From Kiritimatiellia bacterium (GTDB lineage Bacteria > Verrucomicrobiota > Kiritimatiellia > SLAD01): a stretch of DNA of 64,000 bases. Location: positions 2,731 through 66,730 of the forward strand of contig SLKG01000082.1 in assembly GCA_007134735.1 (NCBI GenBank). The letters are read 5' to 3'. Made by a program: the position numbers and the translations under genes. Shown piece after piece: positions 1,844-61,835 of the stretch. The notes under the pieces were generated by a model, which was not told the origin of the DNA, did no database searches, and saw nothing but the letters and a program-made list of their open reading frames with translations. Within the stretch, counting starts at the first letter, position 1, and each line of letters begins with the position of its first letter.

Positions 1844-3748
1844 TTATCCCCTGTTTATCCAGATGGACAGAATGGCAATATCAGAGGGATTCACACCGGA
1901 AATTCTAGAGGCCTGGCCTAGATTTTCCGGGTGAATTTTCTTCAACTTTTCCCGGGCTTCATACCGCAACGCACGAATGGCATCGTAGTCCAGATCGAGA
2001 GGGATACGTTGGTGCTCGAGCTTTCCCGCTTTTGCAATTCTCTTTTTCTCTCGATCTATATATCCCGAGTATTTGATATTAATCTCAATTTGGGCGACGA
2101 TTTCCGCATCCAAAGATGTATCGTGACCAGGGAGATCATGATACGCAACACCTTGCCTTCGAAGCATTTGTGACAATGATGCGCCGCTCACCCTCGTTGT
2201 TTCCAGTCGATTAATCTCCTCTTCTATTTCCTTTCTATGACTCTTTGTTTCCAGAATTTCCTCATGTGAACAAATTCCAATCCTCTGTGCATGATCTAAA
2301 AGACGAAAACACGCGTTGTCCTGCCTTAATACAAGCCGGTGCTCAGCTCTCGAGGTGAACATTCGATAAGGTTCATCAGTTCCCTTTGTGACTAGATCGT
2401 CAATCAAAACACCCAGGTATCCCTCATGCCGCGTTATGATGAGCGGCTCCTCGCCACGGATCTTTAGCACGGCATTAACCCCCGCAATAAATCCTTGCCC
2501 CGCCGCCTCTTCATATCCGGTAGTTCCGTTAACCTGGCCGGCAAGATATAGATTTTCAACAAGCATAGACTCAAGCGTATGATAAAGCTGCGTCGGATCC
2601 AGGTAATCATACTCAATGGCATAACCGGGCTTTAAGAATACAGCTCCCTCTAATCCCGGAATCGAATGAATCATCTCCTCCTGGACCTCCTGGGGAAGAC
2701 TGTTGGATGTTCCGTTGGGATAGATTTCAGGAGAAATGCGGCCTTCTGGCTCTATGAAGACATGATGCCGATCCCTGTCTCTGAACTTTACAATCTTATC
2801 CTCAATGGAAGGACAATACCGAACACCCGTCCCTTCGATCATCCCCCCGTACAAAGCGCTGCGACCCAAATTCCTTTCAATGATTTGATGGGTTTGCTCC
2901 GTCGTGTGAGTCAAATAACAGTCAATTTGACGAGTCCCGGGAAACCATGGCTTAAGCGGATTCCCCGATTGTTCCACGTGGAACAATTCATCCGTTGCAC
3001 CCGGTCCGGCCTTTTGTTGTTCCACGTGGAACAACCGCCAATCTCGCTTTGCCGCCCGCGAGAAAAACGGAGGGGGATCATATCCCGGCTGGACTTCCAT
3101 TCGACCGAAATTAATGCTTTCCCGATGCAACCTGGGAGGGGTCCCCGTCTTCAGCCTTCCCATTCGAAACCCCAACTTATTAAATGACTGACTTAATTGA
3201 TACGCCCCTTTCTCCCCAAGCCGACCGCCGGGATAACATCGGTCACCAATGTAGATTTTTCCTCCAAGAAACGTGCCTGTCGCGATTATTACACAGCGGC
3301 CAGCGATTCGAGATCCGCCCTCTGTGATCACACCCCTCACTTTTCCATCTTTTATCCACAGGTTACCAACAAGGACCTCGATAACCTCGATATTGGATGT
3401 CATTTGGATGACAGCCTTGATGCGCTCGGGGTAGGCAGTCTTCTCCGACTGAATGCGATGGGCTTGGACGGCGGGTCCTTTTCGGGTGTTCAGGGTTCGA
3501 AACTGGATTCCCGTATAATCCGCATTCCGAGCCATCTCTCCACCCAAGGCATCCAGTTCGCATACAATATGGGATTTCGCCATTCCTCCGATCGATGGAT
3601 TGCATGACATACGGGCAATGGAATCAAAAGAAGCTGTGACCAGTGCCGTGCGAGCCCCCATGCGCGCGGAAGCCAGAGCAGCCTCACAGCCGGCATGACC
3701 CGCACCCACAACAATCACGTCGTACTCTGTGTCAAGATATTTATTCAT
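1844..3748 (-). CDS. mnmG: tRNA uridine-5-carboxymethylaminomethyl(34) synthesis enzyme MnmG (GidA)
   Basis: 634 aa; N-terminal FAD motif [15 protein letters not shown], conserved [11 protein letters not shown] block, full-length colinearity with GidA; carries a ~28-aa in-frame insertion encoded by two palindromes (see parS features). Confidence 0.95.
2970..2985. other. parS-like centromere site (TGTTCCACGTGGAACA), copy 1, inside mnmG
   Basis: Perfect 16-bp palindrome matching ParB-binding parS consensus tGTTNCACGTGAAACa (Pseudomonas-type variant); read in-frame as LFHVEQ. Confidence 0.6.
3018..3033. other. parS-like centromere site (TGTTCCACGTGGAACA), copy 2, inside mnmG
   Basis: Identical 16-bp palindrome 48 bp from copy 1; also encodes LFHVEQ in-frame. 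Confidence 0.6.
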
Positions 3749-3896
3749 TCTCTCCGGATATCCTGCACCGGCCCCCAGATCGATTTTCTCTCATTCACCA
3801 TCGGGCTTGATGTGATGGTCGGCCGGTTAAACGGGGCAAAGTATATACCAGGTGCGTCATGAAGCAAGCGGCCGGGAAGGGGTCATTTCTAAACTA

Positions 3897-5357
3897 TTAC
3901 TTCCCTATACAGAAGCGCGAGAAAATATGGTCCAGGAGGTCGTCCTGATAGACGCGGCCGGTAACAGAGCCTATCTGTTCCAGCGCCGATCGCATTCGCG
4001 CAGAAGCCAAGGCCGCCATGTCCTCCCGGCCCGCACCCAGCATCTCGCAAGCGGCCCCCATATCCTCTCGGGCCCCCGCAAGAAAACGGCGATGCCGCTC
4101 CGAGATGGTCGCATGCGGCCGGGCGCCCAAATCTAACCGAGACGAAAGCAAACCACCAACTACACCCCTTATCTCGTCAACACCGAAATCCCCAGCAAGA
4201 CAAGCTTCTATGACAGGGTGGGGCGCAAATACCCCTTTATAATGTATATTTCCCAAGTCTATCTTGTTAATTACAATGATACTACGCCCCACCGGAAGAG
4301 ATGAGATCAATGTTTTGTCGGCGGCGTCCAAAGGTTCATTGGCACTGACCAGGTAGATGGGCAGATCGGCGCGGCGCAGGTGGGCGCGGGTCCGGTCGAT
4401 GCCTTCGCGCTCGATATCGCATTCGGAGTCGCGCAACCCGGCGGTATCGACCAAGCGGAGCGGAATGCCGTTGACGACGAATTCCTCCTCGATGGTGTCG
4501 CGAGTGGTGCCCGGGGACGGGGAGACGATGGCGCGGGCGGTGCCGAGGAGCTTGTTGAGCAGGGTGGATTTGCCCACGTTCGGTCGCCCGGCGATGACGA
4601 CCAATGCGCCGTCGCGCAAAAGATGACCCTCATCCCAGGTTGCGATAAGGGATTCTAGGGTTCGTTCTGCTTCGCGAGCACGCCGGACCAGTTCGGGAAG
4701 CACCTGCTCGGGCAATTCATCCTCCGGGAAATCCAGGGTCGCCTCCAGATCGCCGGCCACGAGCATGATCTGATCGTATATCCCGTTGAATTTCCGGCTC
4801 AAGCCGCCCTCCAATTGATCCAGCGCGGCGGTCGCGGCTCGTTCCGAGCGCGCGCAAATCAGATCCAACACGGCTTCTGCCTGTACCAGATCGATCCGGC
4901 CGTTCAGAAAGGCGCGCTGGGTAAACTCTCCCGGTTCGGCGGGTCGGGCCCCCGCGTCCAGCACGCATCGCAATATGCGGCGGGAACACATGGATCCGCC
5001 GTGACCCTGCAGCTCAACGACATCTTCCCCGGTATAGCTATGCGGTGCGCGCATGACAAGCAGGATGGCCTGATCTATAACCTCTTCTCCATCAACGACA
5101 TGCCCAACAACAAAGGTGTTGGCTGATCGAGCGGAGGGCTTGTCACCCTTGCAAATGAAAACCTGATCGGCAACGCCGAGGGCTTCCGGGCCGGATATCC
5201 GCACGATGGAAATCCCCGCCTCGCCCGGCGCTGTCGCAATAGCCGCGATGGTGTCGTCCGGCACGTGGGGCGCATTGGGGACAGGTACCTCGCTGGGGAT
5301 GGGGACAGAGGACGGCTGGACAGATGGACGGTTGGACGGATGAGTATCAGGGTTCAT
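3897..5357 (-). CDS. mnmE: tRNA modification GTPase MnmE (TrmE)
   Basis: G-domain P-loop GRPNVGKSTL, C-terminal CIGK tetrapeptide typical of MnmE; operon order mnmE-mnmG. ATG at 5357 gives a 35-aa Pro-rich extension; a GTG at 5265 (HVPDDTIAAIATAPG) would give canonical length, so the true start may be 5265. Confidence 0.9.
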   Translation of the reverse strand: MNPDTHPSNRPSVQPSSVPIPSEVPVPNAPHVPDDTIAAIATAPGEAGISIVRISGPEALGVADQVFICKGDKPSARSANTFVVGHVVDGEEVIDQAILLVMRAPHSYTGEDVVELQGHGGSMCSRRILRCVLDAGARPAEPGEFTQRAFLNGRIDLVQAEAVLDLICARSERAATAALDQLEGGLSRKFNGIYDQIMLVAGDLEATLDFPEDELPEQVLPELVRRAREAERTLESLIATWDEGHLLRDGALVVIAGRPNVGKSTLLNKLLGTARAIVSPSPGTTRDTIEEEFVVNGIPLRLVDTAGLRDSECDIEREGIDRTRAHLRRADLPIYLVSANEPLDAADKTLISSLPVGRSIIVINKIDLGNIHYKGVFAPHPVIEACLAGDFGVDEIRGVVGGLLSSRLDLGARPHATISERHRRFLAGAREDMGAACEMLGAGREDMAALASARMRSALEQIGSVTGRVYQDDLLDHIFSRFCIGK

Positions 5358-5444
5358 AAGGGATATATTGAAACCAATTCGGCGAAAAACAAGCGTTTAC
5401 GGGCTCTGCAGTGGTACCTGTCCCCCAAGTCCGTGACCTGAATC

Positions 5445-14915: not shown

Positions 14916-17876
14916 TTATTCTTCCTCCGGCATCTCTACCATGATGCGGAAATACGCTCTCGCGGCCTTATCATCGTCAAAGATGAAAGAATCTTCGTCG
15001 CCCGCCCCGGGGCGCCGATCGACGCCGGGAACATTGCTCCAGATACCGTCCACCAGGTCTTCCACAAACTGGAACGAATACACCCGCCCCGTCGAACCCG
15101 GCTCGAAATAGACGGTCATCGGCGGACCGGGCTCCACATCCAGTATCCGGAATATCGAAGCGGGATTGGTCGGATTCAGGTCGGCGATGAATTGCTGCGT
15201 AAGGGTCATGCGTTTGTCGGGATCGTAACGCTGATCCACATCGCTCCAGTCTTCTTCTACCTCAGGCTCAATCTCATGCACGGTATACCAGTCAATGGCT
15301 ACGCCGCCCACGCTTTGGAAGAAGGCCGTATAGGTTCCGGACTCTTGCACCCCTTGTTCCGTACGCGCCGGAGCCATATGGCCATCGTCCCAATGCCGGA
15401 ACTCCGCCCCGGCCTCGGGGTCCGCGATAACTTCCTCGCCGTCCTCGCCGTCGCGCACCACTTGGGTTGTCGGACCCGCCAGTTCCCCGCCTGCACCCGC
15501 GATATAGGTCAGGGCATGACCGACCGTGTAGGCATGGAGTGTGGCCCGGAATTTGGCAACGCCGAATGCAATCCCGTCGTCGTTATCTATCTCACCCAGG
15601 GCATGCGCGAAAATAATCCCGCCCAAATGGTCGCCGACCTCTTTCTCGATCGGGCCGTAAGTGGTTTGCTCCAGATTGTCCAGCAGGACCGTATCCTCGT
15701 CATCCGCGGGGATCACGGCAATGGTGTTGACGTCGGGGTCGGTCAACGCCTCCCAGGTGATCAGAACAGGGCTTGCCAACAGATCCTCTTGAAGGGGTTG
15801 TGTGATGACCGGTTGCTGCGCGGGCATCGGCAACGGACTCACGCGGTCCGCGGCGCCGAACCAGAAAGGCGTGCATATCGCCGTTTCGGAGTCCGGGCGC
15901 AGGACCAGCACATGCCAGCCATCCCCCGGCAGGTCGTCCGGATCGTCGGCGTCAATTTCGAACAGGATTTCGTTGTCATGTACCGGCGACAGGTCGGCAT
16001 GGTGCAAATAATGTGCGTCGCCGTCTTGCGATCGCAGTATGACCTCGTAAAACAGGGAGGCAACCGAATCGGTGAAATAAGTTTCGAAGGAAAAAACGTG
16101 AACCGGATCGTCCCCGTTCGCCTCCAAGACAAATCGGCCGAAGTCAACGCGCTCGATTGAATCAAACCGGTCCGGATCGGTATTCGTCGAAAATATGGAT
16201 TCCGTCACATTCGCGCGCAGGAGCAAATAGATCGTCTCCACTTCGCCGCTCGTGTCGTCCTCTTCCGCATTGATGAAGAGGACTTCACATCCGTACACGC
16301 GATCCGGTGTCAGCGCCTCCATTGTAATGTTTGTCGGGAAGGGATCGCCGGGCTCGATTTCGATGAATTCTTCGTACTCCTCATCCTCGGCGAATTCCTC
16401 CCAGTAAAACGCCAAAATGACCCCGAAGTTGGGATCCGGCACGAAAGCCCACTCGAGGTTGGCTTCCGGTGCGGCAACATCCGACTGACCCATGGCGGGT
16501 GATACGATTTGCGGCATGGCGTTGGGCATCTCCGGCGTCTCGGCAAAATCCACAATGGCGGTGGACACACCGTTGTAATGCGTGATCTCCACCAGATATT
16601 CGCCCGCCTCGAATTTGGCATCCAGTGCTGCGATGCTTTCGCCCTGCTCTCCATACTCCCACCACTCAAGTTCCCAGTCGTCAGGCTCCAATTCATACCA
16701 TTGGTCCGACGGCGCCTTAAAGCGGGCGCCCAGGATGCCTTCCCCTAAAACTTCCAGCAAAAAGAAGTGAAACCGGTCGTCCCATGTCACCCAAATCAAC
16801 GCAATCTCTTCAACGTCCAGTGTGGCGTAGCGCCAGAAAATATACGTGGAATGATCGTGTTCATCGTAAAAGTACACGTACCCTTCTGTACCCTCCTGGA
16901 TATTGATTCCTTCCGCACCCAAGTTGGCCGTCCACTCCCCGTCGTTGTTCGCCTGGGCTTCAACCGTAACTTCGCCGACACGCACCAGCACCCAGACATT
17001 TGAGGGGCCGACGCCGCTGAGCGTGTCGGCGTCCATGTCCGCGCCGATGACGGACAGGCCAACCACTGTCATGGAGCGCAGATATGTCCCGTCGTCCGCC
17101 GTGATCACGTCGCCGGCCCGAATGCGGTAATCCTCACCGGGATCAAACCACCAGTATCCATGGTAATCGGCGTATACGGTGGCGAACACATCCGGATCGC
17201 CGGGATCGCCGATGGTAATTTCGATGACGGCCCCGGCCGGCCATCCTTCACCCCTGATATAGTTGCGAAAAGGATTAACCCGAATGACGGGATCCGGCAG
17301 GCGCCAGTAGATGTGCGTTTCATCCCCGTCCTCATCAAACTGGGCGGCGGCGCCCCCCATACCCGGTTCAAGGTCGAACGCCCGTTCCCAATACTCTCCA
17401 CCCGCAGGTTCATTGAAATCCACCAGCCACTCGCCATGTTCATCCACTTCTACATCGCGACTGATATCTTCGTCCCAAACATTCACATTTACCCACGTTC
17501 CCGTCTGCGCCGTTCCCTGTATAGTGTTGTTCGAATAATTGACTTCCGTGATCTGCAGATCGGTCACCACATGCTCTCTCAATACGCTGTCGGATTCGGC
17601 CCGGATCAGGTCATGCGCCTGGATGTCGAGAGGGCTGTCCACCCACCAATCCCCCCATTCATTGACCACGGTGGTGCCCAGCGTTTCATCCGGCGATCCC
17701 ACCCGCGTCACGGTCACCGTTTCATCGACCGGCCATTCGTGTCCCCACACATGATCCGCCATGGGATCCACCATGAAACGGGGGTCTTCATCGGCTTGCG
17801 CGGGTATGGCCCATGCCGTACCGATCAATGCAAGAGTTACCAAACGGAATGAAAACATGATCCTCTTCATCATCAT
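14916..17876 (-). CDS. large secreted acidic Trp-rich protein of unknown function (986 aa) with C-terminal module shared with the GH57 giant
   Basis: Start placed at MMMKRIMFSFRLVTLALIGTAWAIPAQA signal peptide (ATG 17876, AGGGGG RBS 8 nt upstream; longer 18008 ORF start lacks signal); very D/E/W-rich, no recognisable catalytic motif; 14 bp upstream of gltS on same strand. Confidence 0.6.
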   Translation of the reverse strand: MMMKRIMFSFRLVTLALIGTAWAIPAQADEDPRFMVDPMADHVWGHEWPVDETVTVTRVGSPDETLGTTVVNEWGDWWVDSPLDIQAHDLIRAESDSVLREHVVTDLQITEVNYSNNTIQGTAQTGTWVNVNVWDEDISRDVEVDEHGEWLVDFNEPAGGEYWERAFDLEPGMGGAAAQFDEDGDETHIYWRLPDPVIRVNPFRNYIRGEGWPAGAVIEITIGDPGDPDVFATVYADYHGYWWFDPGEDYRIRAGDVITADDGTYLRSMTVVGLSVIGADMDADTLSGVGPSNVWVLVRVGEVTVEAQANNDGEWTANLGAEGINIQEGTEGYVYFYDEHDHSTYIFWRYATLDVEEIALIWVTWDDRFHFFLLEVLGEGILGARFKAPSDQWYELEPDDWELEWWEYGEQGESIAALDAKFEAGEYLVEITHYNGVSTAIVDFAETPEMPNAMPQIVSPAMGQSDVAAPEANLEWAFVPDPNFGVILAFYWEEFAEDEEYEEFIEIEPGDPFPTNITMEALTPDRVYGCEVLFINAEEDDTSGEVETIYLLLRANVTESIFSTNTDPDRFDSIERVDFGRFVLEANGDDPVHVFSFETYFTDSVASLFYEVILRSQDGDAHYLHHADLSPVHDNEILFEIDADDPDDLPGDGWHVLVLRPDSETAICTPFWFGAADRVSPLPMPAQQPVITQPLQEDLLASPVLITWEALTDPDVNTIAVIPADDEDTVLLDNLEQTTYGPIEKEVGDHLGGIIFAHALGEIDNDDGIAFGVAKFRATLHAYTVGHALTYIAGAGGELAGPTTQVVRDGEDGEEVIADPEAGAEFRHWDDGHMAPARTEQGVQESGTYTAFFQSVGGVAIDWYTVHEIEPEVEEDWSDVDQRYDPDKRMTLTQQFIADLNPTNPASIFRILDVEPGPPMTVYFEPGSTGRVYSFQFVEDLVDGIWSNVPGVDRRPGAGDEDSFIFDDDKAARAYFRIMVEMPEEE

Positions 17877-18024
17877 TCGTTCCCCCTTGGAAGTAGGCAT
17901 GGCTTGCGACTCCGGGCCTTTAGCGATGTAACGGATGCCCTTGCCAATTTCTTTCCTGATTACCTGCATTCTGTCAATAATGTCAACAATAATATTCCCG
18001 ATAAGCACCCGGGAAAGTACAAAA

Positions 18025-18057
18025 GTACCTGTCCCTCAGGACCAAAGTACCTGTCCC
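18025..18057. repeat. two tandem copies of 13-mer GGGACAGGTACTTT (reverse orientation) upstream of the acidic giant / Lpd-like genes
   Basis: AAAGTACCTGTCCC at 18022-18035 and 18044-18057, 22-bp period; same core as clusters at 28.0-29.2 kb and 35.0 kb. Confidence 0.7.
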
Positions 18058-18065
18058 TGGTTTTC

Positions 18066-18080
18066 TTCCAACGATTGGAA
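18066..18080. promoter_or_regulatory. 15-bp palindromic operator-like site TTCCAAcgaTTGGAA
   Basis: Perfect inverted repeat; second copy 32 bp downstream; third copy upstream of Fe-ADH at 44195. Confidence 0.45.
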
Positions 18081-18097: not shown

Positions 18098-18112
18098 TTC
18101 CAATGATTGGAA
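18098..18112. promoter_or_regulatory. 15-bp palindromic operator-like site TTCCAAtgaTTGGAA
   Basis: Perfect inverted repeat, 123 bp upstream of the Lpd-like oxidoreductase start. Confidence 0.45.
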
Positions 18113-18234: not shown

Positions 18235-19656
18235 ATGAAAGAACGACAGGTTGAAGTGGCCGTCATCGGCGCCGGGACGGCCGGCCTGGTGGCATTGCGC
18301 GAAGTGCGCAATGTGACCAATGACTTTGTGCTGATCAATAAGGGGCCCTATGGAACCACTTGCGCGCGTGTGGGGTGTATGCCCTCCAAGGCCTTGATCC
18401 AGGTGGCGCACGATTTTCATCGCCGGCGCCAGTTTGGACGGGAAGGCATCCTCGGTTCGGACGGGCTGGCCGTGGATGCGGCACAGGCGATGCGGCATGT
18501 GCGTGCCCTCCGGGATCATTTCGCGGGCGGCATGGTCAAGCGCACGGAACGGTTCGGCGACCGGAACATCCGGGGACACGCGCGGTTCGTGGAACCCGGC
18601 GTGCTGGACGTGGACGGACAGATCGTGCGCGCCCGACGCGTGATCATCGCCGCCGGATCGCATCCAGCCGTGCCGGACGCCTGGCAGGCGCTGGGCGAAC
18701 GTATCCTGACGAGCGACACGATTTTCGAGGAAGAGACCCTGCCGGCCTCCGTCGCGGTAATCGGTCTGGGCGTAATCGGCGTGGAGTTGGGCCAGGCGCT
18801 CGCGCGGCTGGGCGTGGAGACGGTCGGCGTCAGTCATTCCCACAGCCTGGCCGGCCTGACGGATCCCGATATCCGGAATGCGGCGGGGGAATTGATGAAA
18901 GAGGACTTGGAGCTTTGGCAGGGGGAACCCGCGGAGTTGACGGAAGAAGGCCATGGCGTTCGGGTAACCGCCGGGCCGAATTCCCGCAACGTGGACAAGG
19001 TGCTTGTCAGCATAGGGCGAAATCCAAACACGGAGGGATTGGGACTTGAGAATCTCGGTGTTGAGATTCGGGAAGACGGCTTGCCGGTATTCGATCCGGA
19101 CACCTTGCAGGTCGGTGGCTTGCCCGTCTTCATCGCGGGCGATGTGAACAACGAGTATCCTATTCTGCACGAGGCGTGGGACGACGGTCGGATCGCAGGG
19201 TACAACGCGATGCAGGACCGGCCCGTCTGTTTCAGAAGGCGGACGCCGCTGGCCATAACCTTTTCCGATCCGAACATCGCGATGGCCGGACGTTCGTATG
19301 CGTCATTGAAACCGGATACCTTCGTGGCCGGAGACGAGGATTTTGCCCGACAAGGCCGGGCGCTCATCAAGGGCGAGGCGCGCGGCCGATTGCGCATCTA
19401 CGGCGATCCTGAGTCGGGTCGTCTTCTGGGCGCGGAGATCGTCGCGCCGGACGGCGAACATCTCGCGCATCTGCTGGCATGGGCCATACAGAAGAACATG
19501 ACCGTATTCGAGGCGTTGCGCATGCCGTTTTATCATCCGGTCACCGAAGAAGGCGTGCGCATGGCCCTGCAGAGCCTGGCGACGAAGATGCCGCACAAGC
19601 CGGCCCCGATGGACATGGCCTTTTGTGAAGAAACGCCTCCGGACGCGTTGTCCTAG
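18235..19656 (+). CDS. FAD-dependent pyridine nucleotide-disulfide oxidoreductase (dihydrolipoyl dehydrogenase / mercuric reductase-like)
   Basis: 473 aa; FAD motif VAVIGAGTAGL, redox-active disulfide GTTCARVGCMPSK, C-terminal dimerisation domain with HP.(T)..E. Confidence 0.8.
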   Translation: MKERQVEVAVIGAGTAGLVALREVRNVTNDFVLINKGPYGTTCARVGCMPSKALIQVAHDFHRRRQFGREGILGSDGLAVDAAQAMRHVRALRDHFAGGMVKRTERFGDRNIRGHARFVEPGVLDVDGQIVRARRVIIAAGSHPAVPDAWQALGERILTSDTIFEEETLPASVAVIGLGVIGVELGQALARLGVETVGVSHSHSLAGLTDPDIRNAAGELMKEDLELWQGEPAELTEEGHGVRVTAGPNSRNVDKVLVSIGRNPNTEGLGLENLGVEIREDGLPVFDPDTLQVGGLPVFIAGDVNNEYPILHEAWDDGRIAGYNAMQDRPVCFRRRTPLAITFSDPNIAMAGRSYASLKPDTFVAGDEDFARQGRALIKGEARGRLRIYGDPESGRLLGAEIVAPDGEHLAHLLAWAIQKNMTVFEALRMPFYHPVTEEGVRMALQSLATKMPHKPAPMDMAFCEETPPDALS

Positions 19657-27912: not shown

Positions 27913-28881
27913 ATGAAGTTCTTAAGCGATTATCCCCAAAAAACTCAAGAGTTTCTCCCGCCCGGAAGCCGATGGCAACCTGCCGGATTAACCGATTTCA
28001 ACAAGACAGACCATCTTTTGTGGCAGGCGCTTGGTCGCGGGGGACAGGTACAGGTATGCGATGTTGCCGACCCGGCGGGATTCGTATCCACGGATCCGAG
28101 AATCGTACTGATTTCCCATGCTCCGGAATCACAGTTCATGGCCGCTACCCGCATCCTTCGGCAGGGGATCTCCCTGCCGGATTCCGTGTTCTGCCTCGCC
28201 TTGGAGGGAAAAGGCTTCCGGGGACAGAGAAACCGGACATGGGAAGCCCTGGCCGGAAATCTACATTTAACCGTTGTGTACCAGGCCGACATCCCCGCAC
28301 GAAACGCCGGCGCGGAGCTAACCATGCTACCCGCCGTGGCCGCTGCCGAAACCACCCGTACCGCCTTGGAGGGACAGGTACCGGAGGGACAGGTACCTGT
28401 CACCATCAAATGGATTAACGACATCCTTATTGACGGCCAGAAGGCGGCTGGCGTGCTGACATCCACACAGATTCGCGGGGATCGGATAACCGGGGTTGTG
28501 TTTGGGGTGGGTATAAATGTCGCGCAGGCGCCTTGTATCGACCCCACCCCGTTTGCACCCTCGGCCACGGCCATTTCCCGTCATGCCCCGTCGCGCGCCC
28601 ATCAATTACCCGATATTTTCCGGGATATAGCCGTCCGAATAGACCGGTATTACAGGAATCTTCAGACTGGCGGACCCTCGACTCTATTTGGGCGATATCG
28701 CAAATATACCGATATTGTGGGCCACCGCGTGTGTATCTGGCCTGAAAATATCTCGGATTGGAAGAAATCCGAGCCATTTGCCTCAGGCACGGTTACCGAA
28801 CTGAAACCTGATCTTTCACTCATATTGGATCACCACCCCGAACCCATCACAAAAGGGCGCCTCGCCTATGAGTCCGCTTGA
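27913..28881 (+). CDS. biotin--protein ligase-like protein (BPL/LPL catalytic domain)
   Basis: GKGFRGQRNRTW (cf. BirA GRGRRGRKW) and KWINDILIDGQKAAGVL (cf. KWPNDLYL.GKKLAGIL); N-terminal 50 aa uncertain; contains three in-frame copies of the GGGACAGGTAC 13-mer (GGQVQV, EGQVPEGQVP). Confidence 0.6.
   Translation: MKFLSDYPQKTQEFLPPGSRWQPAGLTDFNKTDHLLWQALGRGGQVQVCDVADPAGFVSTDPRIVLISHAPESQFMAATRILRQGISLPDSVFCLALEGKGFRGQRNRTWEALAGNLHLTVVYQADIPARNAGAELTMLPAVAAAETTRTALEGQVPEGQVPVTIKWINDILIDGQKAAGVLTSTQIRGDRITGVVFGVGINVAQAPCIDPTPFAPSATAISRHAPSRAHQLPDIFRDIAVRIDRYYRNLQTGGPSTLFGRYRKYTDIVGHRVCIWPENISDWKKSEPFASGTVTELKPDLSLILDHHPEPITKGRLAYESA
28039..28051. repeat. 13-mer GGGGGACAGGTAC copy inside BirA-like gene
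   Basis: Read in-frame as G-G-Q-V. Confidence 0.6.
28371..28398. repeat. two adjacent copies of GGGACAGGTACC inside BirA-like gene
   Basis: gagGGACAGGTACCggagGGACAGGTACCtgtc encoding EGQVPEGQVP. Confidence 0.7.
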
Positions 28882-28882
28882 A

Positions 28883-28893
28883 GGGACAGGTAC
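28883..28893. repeat. 13-mer copy GGGACAGGTAC 2 nt after BirA-like stop codon
   Basis: tgaagGGACAGGTACtgcc. Confidence 0.55.
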
Positions 28894-28930
28894 TGCCACA
28901 TACGTACCCGTTCCCTCGAATCCAACAAAA

Positions 28931-28971
28931 CCACAAATTCGTGGTTGACACTTAACTATATATGGTATAAT
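28931..28971 (+). promoter_or_regulatory. putative promoter and palindromic operator of the XRE-family regulator gene
   Basis: CCACAAATTCGTGG near-palindrome (28931-28944) abutting TTGACA (28945-28950), 15-nt spacer, extended -10 TGgTATAAT (28963-28971); gene start 28997. Confidence 0.4.
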
Positions 28972-28996
28972 TTCTACCACAGTTGGGTTTTTTTAT

Positions 28997-29389
28997 ATGA
29001 ATTTTCCGGAAATTATAAAGGGGCTACGGGTTAAGCGGGGGCTCACATTGCGCAAGTTTTGTTTAGGAAACGGGCTTGATCCAAGCAACTGGAGCAAGCT
29101 CGAGCGCGGTCTTCTGGCCCCGCCCCGGGATTCGGAGACATTGGATAAATGGGCGTTATTACTTGGCCTGGAAAGGGATACAGAGGAGTGGCAGGAGTTC
29201 ATGGATGCCGCAGATCTGGAGCGGGGACAGGTACCGCATGATCTTCTCGCCAGCCCGGATCTTCGGGACCGGATCATGTCTTTCCTTAAGGCCATCCGCG
29301 CGGAACAACAAGCGGGGCGGGAAATCCGCGACAGGGAACCTGTGCCCCGCTTTTATGCGCCCAGCTCCAATGACGACTTCATTGATTGA
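28997..29389 (+). CDS. XRE-family helix-turn-helix transcriptional regulator
   Basis: 130 aa; N-terminal HTH_3-like segment LRVKRGLTLRKFCLGNGLDPSNWSKLERG; contains one in-frame 13-mer copy (RGQVP). Confidence 0.6.
   Translation: MNFPEIIKGLRVKRGLTLRKFCLGNGLDPSNWSKLERGLLAPPRDSETLDKWALLLGLERDTEEWQEFMDAADLERGQVPHDLLASPDLRDRIMSFLKAIRAEQQAGREIRDREPVPRFYAPSSNDDFID
29223..29235. repeat. 13-mer GGGGACAGGTACC copy inside XRE regulator gene
   Basis: Read in-frame as G-Q-V-P. Confidence 0.6.
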
Positions 29390-29418
29390 CCCAGAATATG
29401 TTCTTCATGTCCGATTCA

Positions 29419-34966: not shown

Positions 34967-35080
34967 TGGGGACAGGTACACTGGCCCACTGGCCGGGCGA
35001 TGGGGACAGGTACCCGGGTGGGTTATCCGGGGGACAGGTACCCGGCCGGCCGTTATGGGTTCCGGGGCGGGGACAGGTAC
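34967..35080. repeat. four tandem copies of 13-mer GGGGACAGGTACC plus one degenerate copy
   Basis: Copies at 34967, 35002, 35030, 35069 (spacing 35/28/39 bp), degenerate GGGGCAGGCTATCC at 35089; between divergent GH57 giant and PUR-like genes. Confidence 0.75.
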
Positions 35081-35217: not shown

Positions 35218-35436
35218 ATGGACAAGGAACTGGCAAGTGAAAAGATTCAGGTTGAACGCAAACAGTTTTTCTTTGATCTGAAAGAAAACCCGCGTGGGCG
35301 GTTTCTTCGAATTACGGAAGATGTTGGAGGGCGGCGGGATGCCATCATCATTCCTGCTCCGGGACTGAAGTTATTTCGGGATTCGCTGGACCGCGTAATT
35401 GCGGCCAACACAAACGGGGACGAAGACAGCGCGTAA
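35218..35436 (+). CDS. bacterial PUR-alpha-like nucleic-acid-binding protein (DUF3276 family)
   Basis: 72 aa; KIQVERKQFFFDLKENPRGRFLRITE...GGRRDAIIIPAPGL matches PUR repeat pattern; strong GGGAGGTG RBS. Confidence 0.55.
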   Translation: MDKELASEKIQVERKQFFFDLKENPRGRFLRITEDVGGRRDAIIIPAPGLKLFRDSLDRVIAANTNGDEDSA

Positions 35437-52249: not shown

Positions 52250-52320
52250 TTGCCGGACTAGGATTCGAACCTAGACTCACAGATCCAGAGTCTGCTGTGC
52301 TACCATTACACCATCCGGCA
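52250..52320 (-). tRNA. tRNA-Gln (anticodon CUG)
   Basis: Cloverleaf foldable by hand: acceptor UGCCGGA/UCCGGCA with U1:A72, D-arm GUGU-AAUGGUA-GCAC, anticodon arm GCAGA-CUCUGGA-UCUGU, T-arm CUAGG-UUCGAAU-CCUAG; CCA not encoded. Confidence 0.8.
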
Positions 52321-56671: not shown

Positions 56672-59353
<2,682 letters not shown>

Positions 59354-59354
59354 T

Positions 59355-61835
59355 ATGTACAATCCCAACGAGCGAATTGAGCCGGTCAATATTGAAGACG
59401 AAATGCAGCGCGCGTACATCGATTACTCGATGAGCGTAATTGTGGGGCGCGCCCTTCCGGACGCGCGCGACGGCTTGAAGCCCGGCAATCGGCGCATTTT
59501 ATACGCCATGCACGAGCGCGGCTGGACGCACAACAAACCGTTTGTAAAATGCGCCAAGGTCGTCGGCGAAGTCATCGGTAATTTTCATCCGCACGGCGAT
59601 GCCGCCGTGTACGACACCATGGTTCGCATGGCCCAGGACTTTTCCATGCGGTATCCCCTCATCCACGGTCAGGGCAATTTCGGCAGTGTTGACGGCGATC
59701 CGCCCGCAGCCTATCGCTACACGGAATGCCGCCTCAACCGCATGGCCGGGGAAATGCTGGCCGATATAGATAAACGGACGGTTGATACGCGCGCCAATTT
59801 TGATGAAACCCTGCAGGAACCCGTTGTGCTGCCGGCCCGCCTGCCCAACCTGCTGGCTAACGGGAGCACCGGGATCGCGGTGGGAATGGCTACCAATATC
59901 CCGCCGCACAACCTGGGGGAGTTGACGGACGCGTTGATTCACTTGATCGATCACCCCGAGGCCTCCATAGCGGATCTGATGCAGTACGTCAAGGGACCCG
60001 ATTTTCCGACCGGCGGCGTGGTCTGCGGACTGGCCCCCATTAAGAGCATGTATGAAACCGGCCGCGGCCTGATCAAGTTGCGGGGAAAGGCCGGCATTGA
60101 GTCGGATCGTCACGGCAAGGAAAATATCGTCATCACGGAAATTCCTTATGCGCTCAACAAATCCTCTCTTATCGAGAAGATCGCGCACCTGGTACAGGAG
60201 AAGAAACTGGAGGGTATTTCGGATATCCGGGACGAATCGGACAAGGACGGCATCCGCATCGTGATCGAGTTGAAACGCGGAACGATCCCCCGCGTCTTAC
60301 TGAACAACCTTTTCAAGCAGACCCCGCTGGCGATGACGTTCGGGGCCATTCTGTTGGCCATCGACCGGGGCCAACCGCGCGTGATGAATCTCAAGCAGAT
60401 CATGCAGTGCTTTCTGCATCATCGCTTCGATGTGGTTACCCGCCGGGCCCGGTTCGACCTGGAAAAGGCCGAGGCGCGCGCGCATATCCTGGAAGGATTG
60501 AAAATCGCGCTCGACCATCTCGACGAAGTGGTCAAGACCATCCGGGGCGCGCGGGACCGTGACCAGGCGCGCGCGGATTTGATGAAACGGTTCGGCCTGA
60601 CCGAAATACAGGCGAACGCCATTCTGGATATGCGGTTGTATCAGCTGACCAATCTCGAGCGGGCCAAAATTGACGAGGAATACCTGGAAATCATCAAGCT
60701 GATCAACTATCTGCGGGATCTCCTGGCACAGGATCAAAAGATCTACGAGGTGATCAAGGAAGATTTAAAGGATCTGAAAAAAACGTATGCCGATGAGCGG
60801 CGAACGGAGATTACCCCGGACGAGGACGAGATTAACATTGAGGATCTTATCGCCGACCGCAGTTATGTCATCACGATCACCCATAGTGGTTACATCAAGC
60901 GGGTCCCCGTAAGCACCTATCGTAACCAACGGCGGGGCGGAAAGGGTGTGGTCGGCATGGGAATGCGGGATGAAGATTATGTGGAACATGTCTTCATGGC
61001 GTCCACGCACGATTACATCCTGTTTTTCACCGAACGGGGCCGTGTGTACTGGAAGAAGGTATACGAGATCCCGGAAGGCGCGCGCGCCACCAAGGGAAAG
61101 GCCATCGTAAACCTGCTGGAAATCAGCAATGATGAAAAAATCGCGGCCATGATCCGGGTCCGTGAATTCTCGGAAACCAACCACCTGGTCATGGCGACCG
61201 CGCGCGGCGTGGTCAAAAAGACCAACTTGTCGGCGTTCAAAAATCCCCGGGCGGGGGGCATCATCGGCATTGCCATTGATGAGAGTGACCGGTTGATCGG
61301 CGTGCGGTTGACGAACGGCGATGACGACCTGATGCTGATCACCCACAAGGGCATGAGCATTCGCTTCAACGAGAATCAACTGCGCGACCAGGGCCGCGCG
61401 ACCCGCGGTGTCCGGGGCATTACATTGGGCCGGGAAAACGACCAGGTGGAGAGCATTGAGGTCGTGGCTCCGGACGAACAAGCCTCGCTGCTCGTCATTA
61501 CGGAAAACGGGTACGGGAAACGGACACTTTTTTCCGAATACCCGGTTCAGCGGCGCGGCGGGAAGGGGGTCATTACGATCCGGGCCTCCGAGCGGAACGG
61601 TCCGGTGGTCGACGCCCATACCGTTCGTTTCAACGACCAGTTGATGTTGATCACGGAGTGGGGTCAGATGATTCGCATATCCGTCGGGGATATCCGCACC
61701 ATCAGCCGCAATACGCAGGGGGTGCGATTGATTACGCTGTCGGAAGAGGACAAGCTGGTATCGGCCACCCCGGTTGAGCCGGAAGGCGACGAATCGGAAT
61801 CGGGGGACGAGGAGGAAGCTCCGGAAGGGAGTTGA
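59355..61835 (+). CDS. gyrA: DNA gyrase subunit A
   Basis: 826 aa; [16 protein letters not shown], active-site Tyr region AAYRYTE (QRDR-like), six C-terminal pinwheel blades, acidic tail. Confidence 0.95.

Follow-up and report, generated by a model that had tools for sequence, protein, structure and literature searches.

A short word recurs in and around a BirA-like and an XRE-type gene

The DNA examined here is a 64,000-nucleotide (nt) stretch, hereafter the window, of contig SLKG01000082.1 from a Kiritimatiellia bacterium (GCA_007134735.1). It carries a BirA-like biotin/lipoate ligase-family gene followed by an XRE-type helix-turn-helix (HTH) gene (Table 1), and the initial annotation had noticed five copies of a 13-mer in and around these two genes, which it took for in-frame insertions. 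The repeat itself is real. A scan of the window found 13 exact copies of an invariant unit, the 11-mer GGGACAGGTAC. The base before it is always a purine (G in eight copies), and the base after it is C in seven copies, which extends it to the 13-mer GGGGACAGGTACC. Sixteen copies were found when up to one mismatch was allowed, compared with an expectation of 0.54 and a maximum of 3 in dinucleotide shuffles of the window, and with expectations of 0.05 exact copies and 1.15 copies at up to one mismatch in order-2 Markov simulations. Thus, GGGACAGGTAC is a dispersed repeat that occurs far above chance frequency. Decayed copies were scarce, three one-mismatch versus 13 exact ones, so that the family is unusually sharp. 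The 13 copies fall into four clusters (5278/5414, 18025/18047, 28041–29234, and 34969–35080), of which the third holds the five copies first noticed; their starts had been placed 1 to 3 nt too far upstream because extra leading G/R bases were counted.

Table 1. Genes and copies of the repeated word in the window. Position 1 is the first letter of the window.
Feature	Positions	Strand	Remarks
BirA-like biotin/lipoate ligase-family gene, 322 aa	27913..28881	+	PF03099, E 7e-10; hosts copies A, B1, and B2
Copy A in BirA-like open reading frame (ORF)	28041..28051	+	Exact; codons G43-G44-Q45-V46, then a second CAGGTA
Copy B1 in BirA-like ORF (EGQVP)	28371..28381	+	Exact; upstream unit of 15-nt tandem duplication
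Copy B2 in BirA-like ORF (EGQVP)	28386..28396	+	Exact; downstream unit of duplication
Post-stop copy with imperfect inverted partner	28883..28914	+	Copy 28883–28893; partner 28904–28914, GGAACGGGTAC on − strand
XRE-type HTH gene, 130 aa	28997..29389	+	HTH_19, 24.7 bits, below Pfam cut-off
Copy in XRE-type ORF (R-G-Q-V-P)	29224..29234	+	Exact; over conserved RG(E/Q)(I/V)P segment
Copy antisense to mnmE (VPVP)	5278..5288	+	Exact
Intergenic copy between M48 peptidase gene and mnmE	5414..5424	−	Exact
Two direct copies, 18025–18035 and 18047–18057	18025..18057	−	Exact; upstream of promoter-like TTGACA and 1030-aa ORF 14916–18008(−)
Four direct copies at 34969, 35003, 35031, and 35070	34969..35080	+	Exact; irregular spacing of 34, 28, and 39 nt

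Most coding copies overwrite residues without changing protein length

A database search yielded 82 homologues of the BirA-like protein, of which 16 were aligned, and the DNA of the three closest lineages was aligned by codons. In the 16-sequence alignment, no gap occurred at any motif site except at the second EGQVP. Copies B1 and B2 form a 15-nt tandem duplication that adds five residues (EGQVPEGQVP) and is private to this genome, all 16 orthologues being gapped there. Which unit is the extra one was not distinguishable: the orthologues P0002 and P0003 (61–62% amino acid identity) carry a single exact EGQVP copy at offset 458/461, which matches the offset of B1, and the codon alignment pairs that copy with B2. 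At this site, GAG GGA CAG GTA CC is identical in the three lineages, and distant orthologues show ENRVA, QGRCA, EGRLA, and similar residues in the same columns, gap-free. Similarly, at site A, where a conserved Trp is replaced by Gln, P0003 has 10 of the 11 motif bases at the same offset (128), and P0002 and P0004 have non-motif codons of equal length. P0003 furthermore carries two private copies (sites C and D), one antisense and read as VPVP and one sense and read as EGQVP, both of which overwrite non-motif codons of its relatives with the length unchanged. In an AlphaFold2 model of the BirA-like protein (pLDDT 90.7), EGQVPEGQVP was placed in a loop (153–162) between a helix and a strand, site A in a loop (41–45) at a loop-to-strand boundary, and the private sites of P0003 in loops 129–132 and 254–256. 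The coding copies thus appear to be tolerated in loops, as had been proposed for them.

The XRE-type protein has six homologues, which makes it a family of seven members in 5.8 billion proteins. When the six were aligned, RGQVP matched the RGEIP/RQEIP of distant orthologues residue for residue and without a gap. In P0084, the nearest homologue, the motif is exact and its offset unchanged (227), and the 1.7-kb contig of P0084 (L229) contains four exact copies plus the near-copy GGGACAGGTAA. P0085, however, has RGEIP without the motif (CGC GGG GAA ATC CCG), and zero copies were found in its 20-kb contig (L230). Orthologues therefore keep the residues of this site in DNA that lacks the word, an outcome that the initial annotation had itself named as evidence against inserted copies.

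Taken together, the gap-free orthologue alignments and the private same-length copies of P0003 indicate that substitution or patch replacement, and in one case slippage, generates new coding copies, and that they do not stem from insertion of a mobile 13-mer. The model first put forward, in which a short 13-mer that is mobile or prone to slippage enters surface loops in frame, is in keeping with the 15-nt tandem duplication, the intergenic tandem arrays, the loop locations, and the consistent phase, and has a precedent in the in-frame palindromic elements of Rickettsia and Opitutus genes (PMC3733652). Nevertheless, every other coding copy (A, B, and XRE in this genome; C, D, and the shared XRE site in orthologues) has the same length as its motif-free counterparts, neither target-site duplications nor related flanks or spacers were seen between copies, and the alignments of 16 BirA-like and 6 XRE proteins are free of gaps but for one. 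Slippage thus stands for the one duplication, and mobile insertion is largely refuted for the remaining coding copies; we consider the model improbable.

The word is maintained at the nucleotide level

Counted from the start codon, the four coding copies of the 28041–29234 cluster all have an offset of 2 mod 3 and are read G-GGA-CAG-GTA-C. Across this lineage, all five independent sense sites read GQV(P) and all four antisense sites read VPVP, a result expected by chance with a probability of about 5 × 10−4; the reading phase is hence nonrandom. The earlier statement that every coding copy is read GGA-CAG-GTA-CC holds for the sense copies but fails for the antisense copy at 5278, which reads VPVP in the MnmE ORF. 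Two of the codons involved are rare in the window, GGA accounting for 21% of Gly and GTA for 14% of Val codons. Where a residue is conserved throughout the three BirA-like genes, all of them use one and the same codon at 41% of two-fold and 22% of four-fold sites, and four identical motif codons have an empirical chance of about 0.008; the XRE pair behaved alike. Orthologues at 54–62% identity retain the exact motif at homologous positions with its rare codons, and farther relatives have none in 12–20 kb.

Conservation extends past the coding sequence. The copy at 28883 begins 2 nt after the TGA stop codon (28879–28881) of the BirA-like gene, as first described, and the motif or its variant GGGACAGGTGC occurs within 2–9 nt after the stop in all three motif-bearing lineages (5–9 nt in P0002 and P0003), in surrounding DNA that is unalignable. 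Therefore, although the proteins have diverged by about 40%, the nucleotide sequence of the word has been maintained at coding as well as post-stop positions. Selection on the peptide GQVP itself could explain why the same four residues occur in two proteins, but it is contradicted by the noncoding copies, since most copies are intergenic or antisense, the rare codons are kept identically, and post-stop copies are conserved too; we give this explanation almost no credence.

The BirA-like gene is a hotspot of the motif in three lineages, that is, in two orthologous genomes besides this one, and the position of the cluster is kept as individual sites turn over. The P0004 genome (L124), syntenic with the window at 66–72% nucleotide identity, has zero copies in 12.7 kb. 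Two of the copies at the hotspot have inverted partners. Copy B2 overlaps a one-mismatch inverted copy at 28393–28403(−), which together give the near-palindrome GGGACAGGTACCTGTCAC, and the post-stop copy forms with its partner a REP-like hairpin (28883–28914; RNA fold of −16.1 kcal/mol, z −2.5). A canonical terminator after the BirA-like gene was considered and rejected, as the hairpin has no U-tract.

Some features of the two genes were observed alongside. Unlike true BirA repressors, members of the BirA-like family have no N-terminal HTH. They share a conserved 75-residue N-terminal extension (27913–28137) in which D6 is invariant in 17 sequences; the gene as called by NCBI (P0001, 247 aa) is without this extension. 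Just downstream of the BirA-like gene, a relative (L125) has genes for an HMGL-like/biotin-lipoyl carboxylase subunit and for an OAD_beta subunit, of which the first starts about 440 nt past the stop. The XRE gene has its own extended −10 promoter (TTGACA at 28947–28952, 15 nt ending in TG-G, TATAAT at 28968–28973), which is conserved upstream of P0084 in L229. In the P0003 genome, the interval between the BirA-like and aminotransferase genes does not contain the XRE gene (L122; compare 28882–29418 of the window), and P0084 adjoins a gene of the PD-(D/E)XK nuclease family; given this absence and this different neighbor, the XRE gene appears to have moved or been gained. L229 stems from another run of the same SRR32456xxx series, perhaps from the same organism as P0003, and its near-copy GGGACAGGTAA (1053–1063) provides the TAA stop of the nuclease-family gene, which echoes the published observation that stop codons are often supplied by REP ends. 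The XRE protein was also considered as the reader of the motif and rejected: its family has seven members, L230 has the protein without the motif, and the BirA-like hotspot of L122 has no adjacent XRE gene.

Copies elsewhere in the window

Flanks and spacers were unrelated between the copies of the window. The flanking stems measured 1–4 bp, and hairpin-forming pairs were confined to 28883/28904 and 28386/28393. The copies at 5278(+) and 5414(−) form a 15-nt inverted pair (TTGGGGACAGGTACC), as do those at 18641 and 18756 of locus L237; the spacers of the two pairs are unrelated and only the 15-nt ends are common to both, and on this ground doublets of the kind of miniature inverted-repeat transposable elements or REPINs were rejected. 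The 5278 copy lies inside a called 486-aa MnmE ORF, either in an N-terminal extension or, if a GTG five codons downstream is the true start, in the leader. The four-copy array occupies a divergent intergenic region upstream of a small PurA-like ORF. Several clusters lie 27–52 nt upstream of TTGACA hexamers; overall, the positions of the copies relative to genes are inconsistent across the window. Among Rfam families, only a tRNA (52250–52320, −) reached the gathering threshold, and nothing relevant was found at E ≤ 1 in 27.5–35.5 kb.

Several neighboring features may be recorded here. Two 15-bp palindromes on the − strand, TTCCAATCGTTGGAA (18066–18080) and TTCCAATCATTGGAA (18098–18112), are operator-like and lie just upstream of the 18025/18047 pair and the promoter-like TTGACA of the 1030-aa ORF. 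The 72-aa ORF directly downstream of the four-copy array (35218–35436, +) matches the PurA/PUR-alpha family of proteins that bind single-stranded DNA and RNA (PF04845, 51 bits); that such a protein adjoins an array of a presumed single-stranded DNA signal may be coincidence. The cumulative GC skew has its minimum at about 44–48 kb, which suggests that the window may be near a replication origin; mnmG/mnmE lie at 1844–5357 and gyrB/gyrA at 56672–61835. All 13 copies are to the left of the minimum, and 10 of them are on the + strand.

The same core occurs in many phyla, at some loci beside Y1 transposase genes

Searching one genome of each species for stretches with a pair of copies within 30 nt returned at least 118 of them, with about two expected by chance. 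The loci listed ranged from Clostridia (27% GC) to Propionibacteriaceae (72% GC) and included Bacteroidota, Verrucomicrobiota, Lentisphaeria, Kiritimatiellae, Planctomycetota, Binatia, Acidobacteriota, Proteobacteria, and others, in all more than ten phyla. Across these genomes, the 11-mer core was invariant and its flanks were lineage-specific; copies were dispersed, in tandem arrays, or in inverted pairs, and the periods of the arrays were mostly not multiples of three. The largest array (L104:54–2348, Pirellulaceae KatS3mg110) packs 30 exact copies plus many variants into 2.4 kb with a sub-period of about 26 nt. The core lay in a hairpin loop, between complementary flanks of at least 5 bp, in 26% of copies versus 5.6% of controls. 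This effect is real in many lineages but absent from the copies of the window, and the hairpin loop was thus rejected as a defining feature. Also set aside were the viral contigs L127–L148, in which the 22 tandem matches checked proved to be collagen-like G-T-G-T (Gly-Thr) coding repeats in large ORFs, unrelated look-alikes in phase 0 (GGG ACA GGT AC) with periods in multiples of 3; some matches in Streptomyces and Paraburkholderia were of the same kind.

Clustering of all ORFs neighboring the motif loci gave one informative recurrent family, an IS200-like Y1 transposase homologue. These proteins matched PF01797 at 59.8, 38.9, and 26.8 bits (cut-off 23) and, as the best NCBIfam model, REP_Tyr_transpos at 71–73 bits; the NHxH motif is invariant in their alignment, and the protein of L115 showed a weak C-terminal sigma-r4/HTH-like match. 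By profile hidden Markov model (HMM), a Y1_Tnp gene flanked by motif arrays was present in 10 of the 118 motif-selected loci listed, at most about one being expected. The 10 loci belong to Clostridia, Bacillaceae, Alphaproteobacteria, Lentisphaeria, and Parabacteroides, and their arrays lie about 10–650 nt from the Y1 gene, in the orientation of the gene upstream and inverted downstream.

The association was then approached from the protein side, with eighty metagenome loci fetched by the Y1 protein alone, 40 of which had the full gene and enough flank. Approximately 25 of these 40 Y1 genes were bracketed by inverted repeats containing GGG(A/T)C, mostly about 55–195 nt before the start and about 10–30 nt after the stop. 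The majority variant, GGGGACGGTTCTC, usually lay in a small hairpin abutting the −35 hexamer of the Y1 gene. The exact word GGGACAGGTAC bracketed the gene in L150, L154, and L170, and a one-mismatch form was present in L162, L190, and L199; the identical core also brackets Y1 genes in L070, L091, and L093, and L055 and L084 have a downstream array only. Sister Y1 proteins share repeat variants, so that among sisters the variant tracks the clade, and the Y1 protein P0092 of Paucisalibacillus globulus goes with the variant GGGGACAGGTTCC. The family exceeded 5000 clusters in one profile search, and its members are named "transposase" or "REP element-mobilizing transposase RayT" at NCBI. Exact-sequence literature searches with the motif and the majority variant GGGGACGGTTC returned primers and unrelated matches only.

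At least four paralogous Y1_Tnp genes occur in the Lentisphaeria metagenome-assembled genome 30dZY2.bin.23 (L055, L084, L091, and L093). They are of a longer type that starts with MRMARIKHRGGGCYYHLTNR, measure 312–345 aa where complete (two are cut by the locus edge), and have 3–10 motif copies beside each, on both sides in L091. Judged from this arrangement, the Y1/motif system of this genome looks multi-copy and possibly active.

Comparison with known repeat systems

The closest known counterparts are genes that resemble those of REP-associated tyrosine transposases (RAYTs; REP, repetitive extragenic palindrome) and are flanked by terminal inverted repeats (TIRs), not REPs. Di Nocera, De Gregorio and Rocco (2013) called such units "TIRtrons" and their proteins "TIRYTs" and found that the TIRs share GGGGWSAS and that some of them belong to moderately abundant repeat families, with dimers and clusters (PMC3733652). 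Quentin et al. (2018) equated TIRYTs with TnpA_Y1 subclass 2.1, whose members carry an HTH/DnaA_C-like domain at the C terminus and were present in 14.9% of strains (PMC6006769). The word fits the GGGGWSAS consensus, as GGGGACAG is GGGG-A-C-A-G, with the fourth G present in 8 of the 13 window copies. Likeness to TIRtrons extends to the inverted copies that bracket Y1_Tnp at similar distances, to the dimers and clusters, and to the frequent C-terminal HTH. Here, however, what is dispersed is only a core of 11–15 nt, without the rest of a TIR or hairpin, and this core reads the same in many phyla; its in-gene copies stand in fixed phases and are gained by substitution, and the window itself has no Y1 gene.

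REP/REPIN-RAYT systems have reportedly been described by Nunvar (2010), Bertels and Rainey (2011), Ton-Hoang (2012), and Messing (2012). They resemble the present case in that a short repeat family is tied to a usually single-copy, repeat-flanked Y1 HUH homologue, with clusters like those of bacterial interspersed mosaic elements and with post-stop copies. REPs, in contrast, are palindromes of 20–40 nt with a GTAG (or CGTC) head at the foot of the stem, and they spread as doublets by transposition, whereas the word described here is a non-palindromic 11-mer, often in the loop between variable stems, that is gained without insertions or deletions. No GTAG or CGTC head was found at the window copies, which, apart from the two hairpin-forming pairs, do not form 20- to 40-nt palindromes either. 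Nor do the copies look like insertions with a related whole unit, the coding alignments being gap-free and the spacers of inverted pairs unrelated. Rickettsia palindromic elements and the intragenic REPs of Opitutus terrae lie in frame in noncritical parts of proteins, as insertions of 20–50 residues (PMC3733652). They share with the word that repeats are tolerated in frame inside functional genes; here, though, four to five residues are overwritten and the length stays constant save for one five-residue duplication.

DNA uptake sequences are hyper-abundant in-gene words that propagate by substitution. The closest precedent for an in-gene word conserved beyond codon expectation is HIP1 (GCGATCGC) of cyanobacteria (PMC5861425, PMC4390886). 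Words of both kinds share with ours this conservation, the location inside genes, and the propagation by substitution, but each is limited to a single phylum or family and spread more or less evenly, with neither long tandem arrays nor a link to a transposase. A word of the uptake-signal, Chi-like, or HIP1-like type, driven by biased uptake, biased repair, methylation-linked repair, or another process that does not involve Y1, would fit the substitution spread, the in-gene phase preference, the inverted pairs after genes, and the presence or absence across whole lineages, in which ours resembles uptake sequences and HIP1, the latter having been the subject of a selection analysis (PMC5861425). 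The same 11-mer in more than ten phyla is nevertheless unlike uptake or Chi sequences, which are dispersed words of one taxon, and so are the 30 copies within 2.4 kb, the four tight clusters of the window, and the inverted arrays that adjoin Y1 genes. Accordingly, a driver unrelated to Y1 seems improbable.

A TIR core of Y1 homologues as the proposed origin of the word

We propose that the word, (TT)GGGGACAGGTACC of 11–15 nt, constitutes the conserved core of terminal inverted repeats found on both sides of genes for a widespread family of IS200-like HUH/Y1 transposase homologues (RAYT-like proteins or TIRYTs, TIRtrons, TnpA_Y1 subclass 2.1, and relatives), and that an unseen Y1 reader in this genome drives or selects its copies. 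The probability that we attach to this reading is roughly 0.6. The element would be best filed as a short-core, partly intragenic variant of TIRYT/RAYT-associated repeats, a membership established for the motif only.

Mechanistically, a Y1 protein encoded elsewhere in this genome would read the core. The analogous TnpA_REP and TnpA_IS200 suggest that it would do so in single-stranded DNA, where in many lineages the core would be exposed in the loop of a hairpin. The presence of the reader would lead to directional drive or selection that raises and maintains the copy number and keeps the copies exact. Inside genes, copies would be retained only where a loop tolerates them and where they are read GQV(P) (sense) or VPVP (antisense), and local slippage could then yield tandem copies such as EGQVPEGQVP and the intergenic arrays. 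Candidate routes to same-length gains are selection of binding sites and template-switch or patch conversion at quasi-palindromes (for example, 28386–28403 and 28883–28914).

Several points weigh against this proposal. A Y1_Tnp gene was not found by tblastn and HMM searches in the 64-kb window and the 10 kb of contig on either side of it (20 kb in all), so that for this genome the link between motif and Y1 is drawn by inference from other genomes. Most copies of the window are without the flanking stems found in other genomes, and the same repeat variant stands beside distantly related Y1 clades, which means that specificity is not one-to-one. Transposition by Y1 enzymes, HUH enzymes that cut and rejoin, predicts insertions and not same-length substitutions, and we know of no Y1 enzyme activity that writes a motif by substitution. 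In the literature, moreover, TIRYT genes show no strict correlation with TIR repeat families (Di Nocera et al., PMC3733652), and no REP-like sequences were reported near subclass 2.1 genes (Quentin et al., PMC6006769).

Selection at the level of the host offers another explanation, namely, that the word is a functional site recognized by a factor that binds DNA or RNA (this could be the HTH/DnaA_C-like domain of subclass 2.1 proteins or, for example, a conserved protein unrelated to these) and that its clusters are selected as regulatory or chromosome-organizing landmarks, with turnover of sites and no transposition. Gains by substitution are what such selection predicts, and the exactness of the copies (13 exact versus 3 one-mismatch), the kept cluster position with turnover of sites at the BirA-like hotspot of the three lineages, the clusters 27–52 nt upstream of TTGACA, and the upstream TIRtron repeat abutting the −35 hexamer of the Y1 gene agree with it. 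On the other hand, a reader protein has not been identified for it, the motif is unlike the DnaA box (Quentin et al., PMC6006769), the copies of the window hold no consistent position relative to genes, and arrays of up to 30 copies (L104) and the inverted bracketing of Y1 genes resemble the ends of mobile elements and not operators. We therefore regard a host-level site as unlikely, although it deserves more weight than the insertion, uptake, or peptide explanations.

A further and equally tentative idea is that GGGGACAGGTACC might be a genome-wide "written" signal, for which a Y1/HUH reader or a partner repair pathway converts near-matches to exact copies or selects them, including in essential genes, as a HIP1- or uptake-like word that is the same letter for letter in more than ten phyla. 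If so, propagation of a repeat by substitution or patch conversion would be a mode undescribed for Y1 transposases, and a host-level function of the clusters would be implied.

Implications

In the literature consulted, we found no description of letter-for-letter conservation across phyla combined with spread by substitution into coding loops. Words of this kind skew codon usage and create short recurrent peptides (GQVP and VPVP) and slippage-prone sites in otherwise conserved proteins. If the word is the core of Y1-associated terminal repeats, the end-motif of such elements can colonize a genome as a bare 11- to 15-nt word, which would give a handle on what the very common TIRYT/subclass 2.1 proteins recognize. 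A further question is whether domesticated HUH proteins may shape genomes by means other than cut-and-paste.

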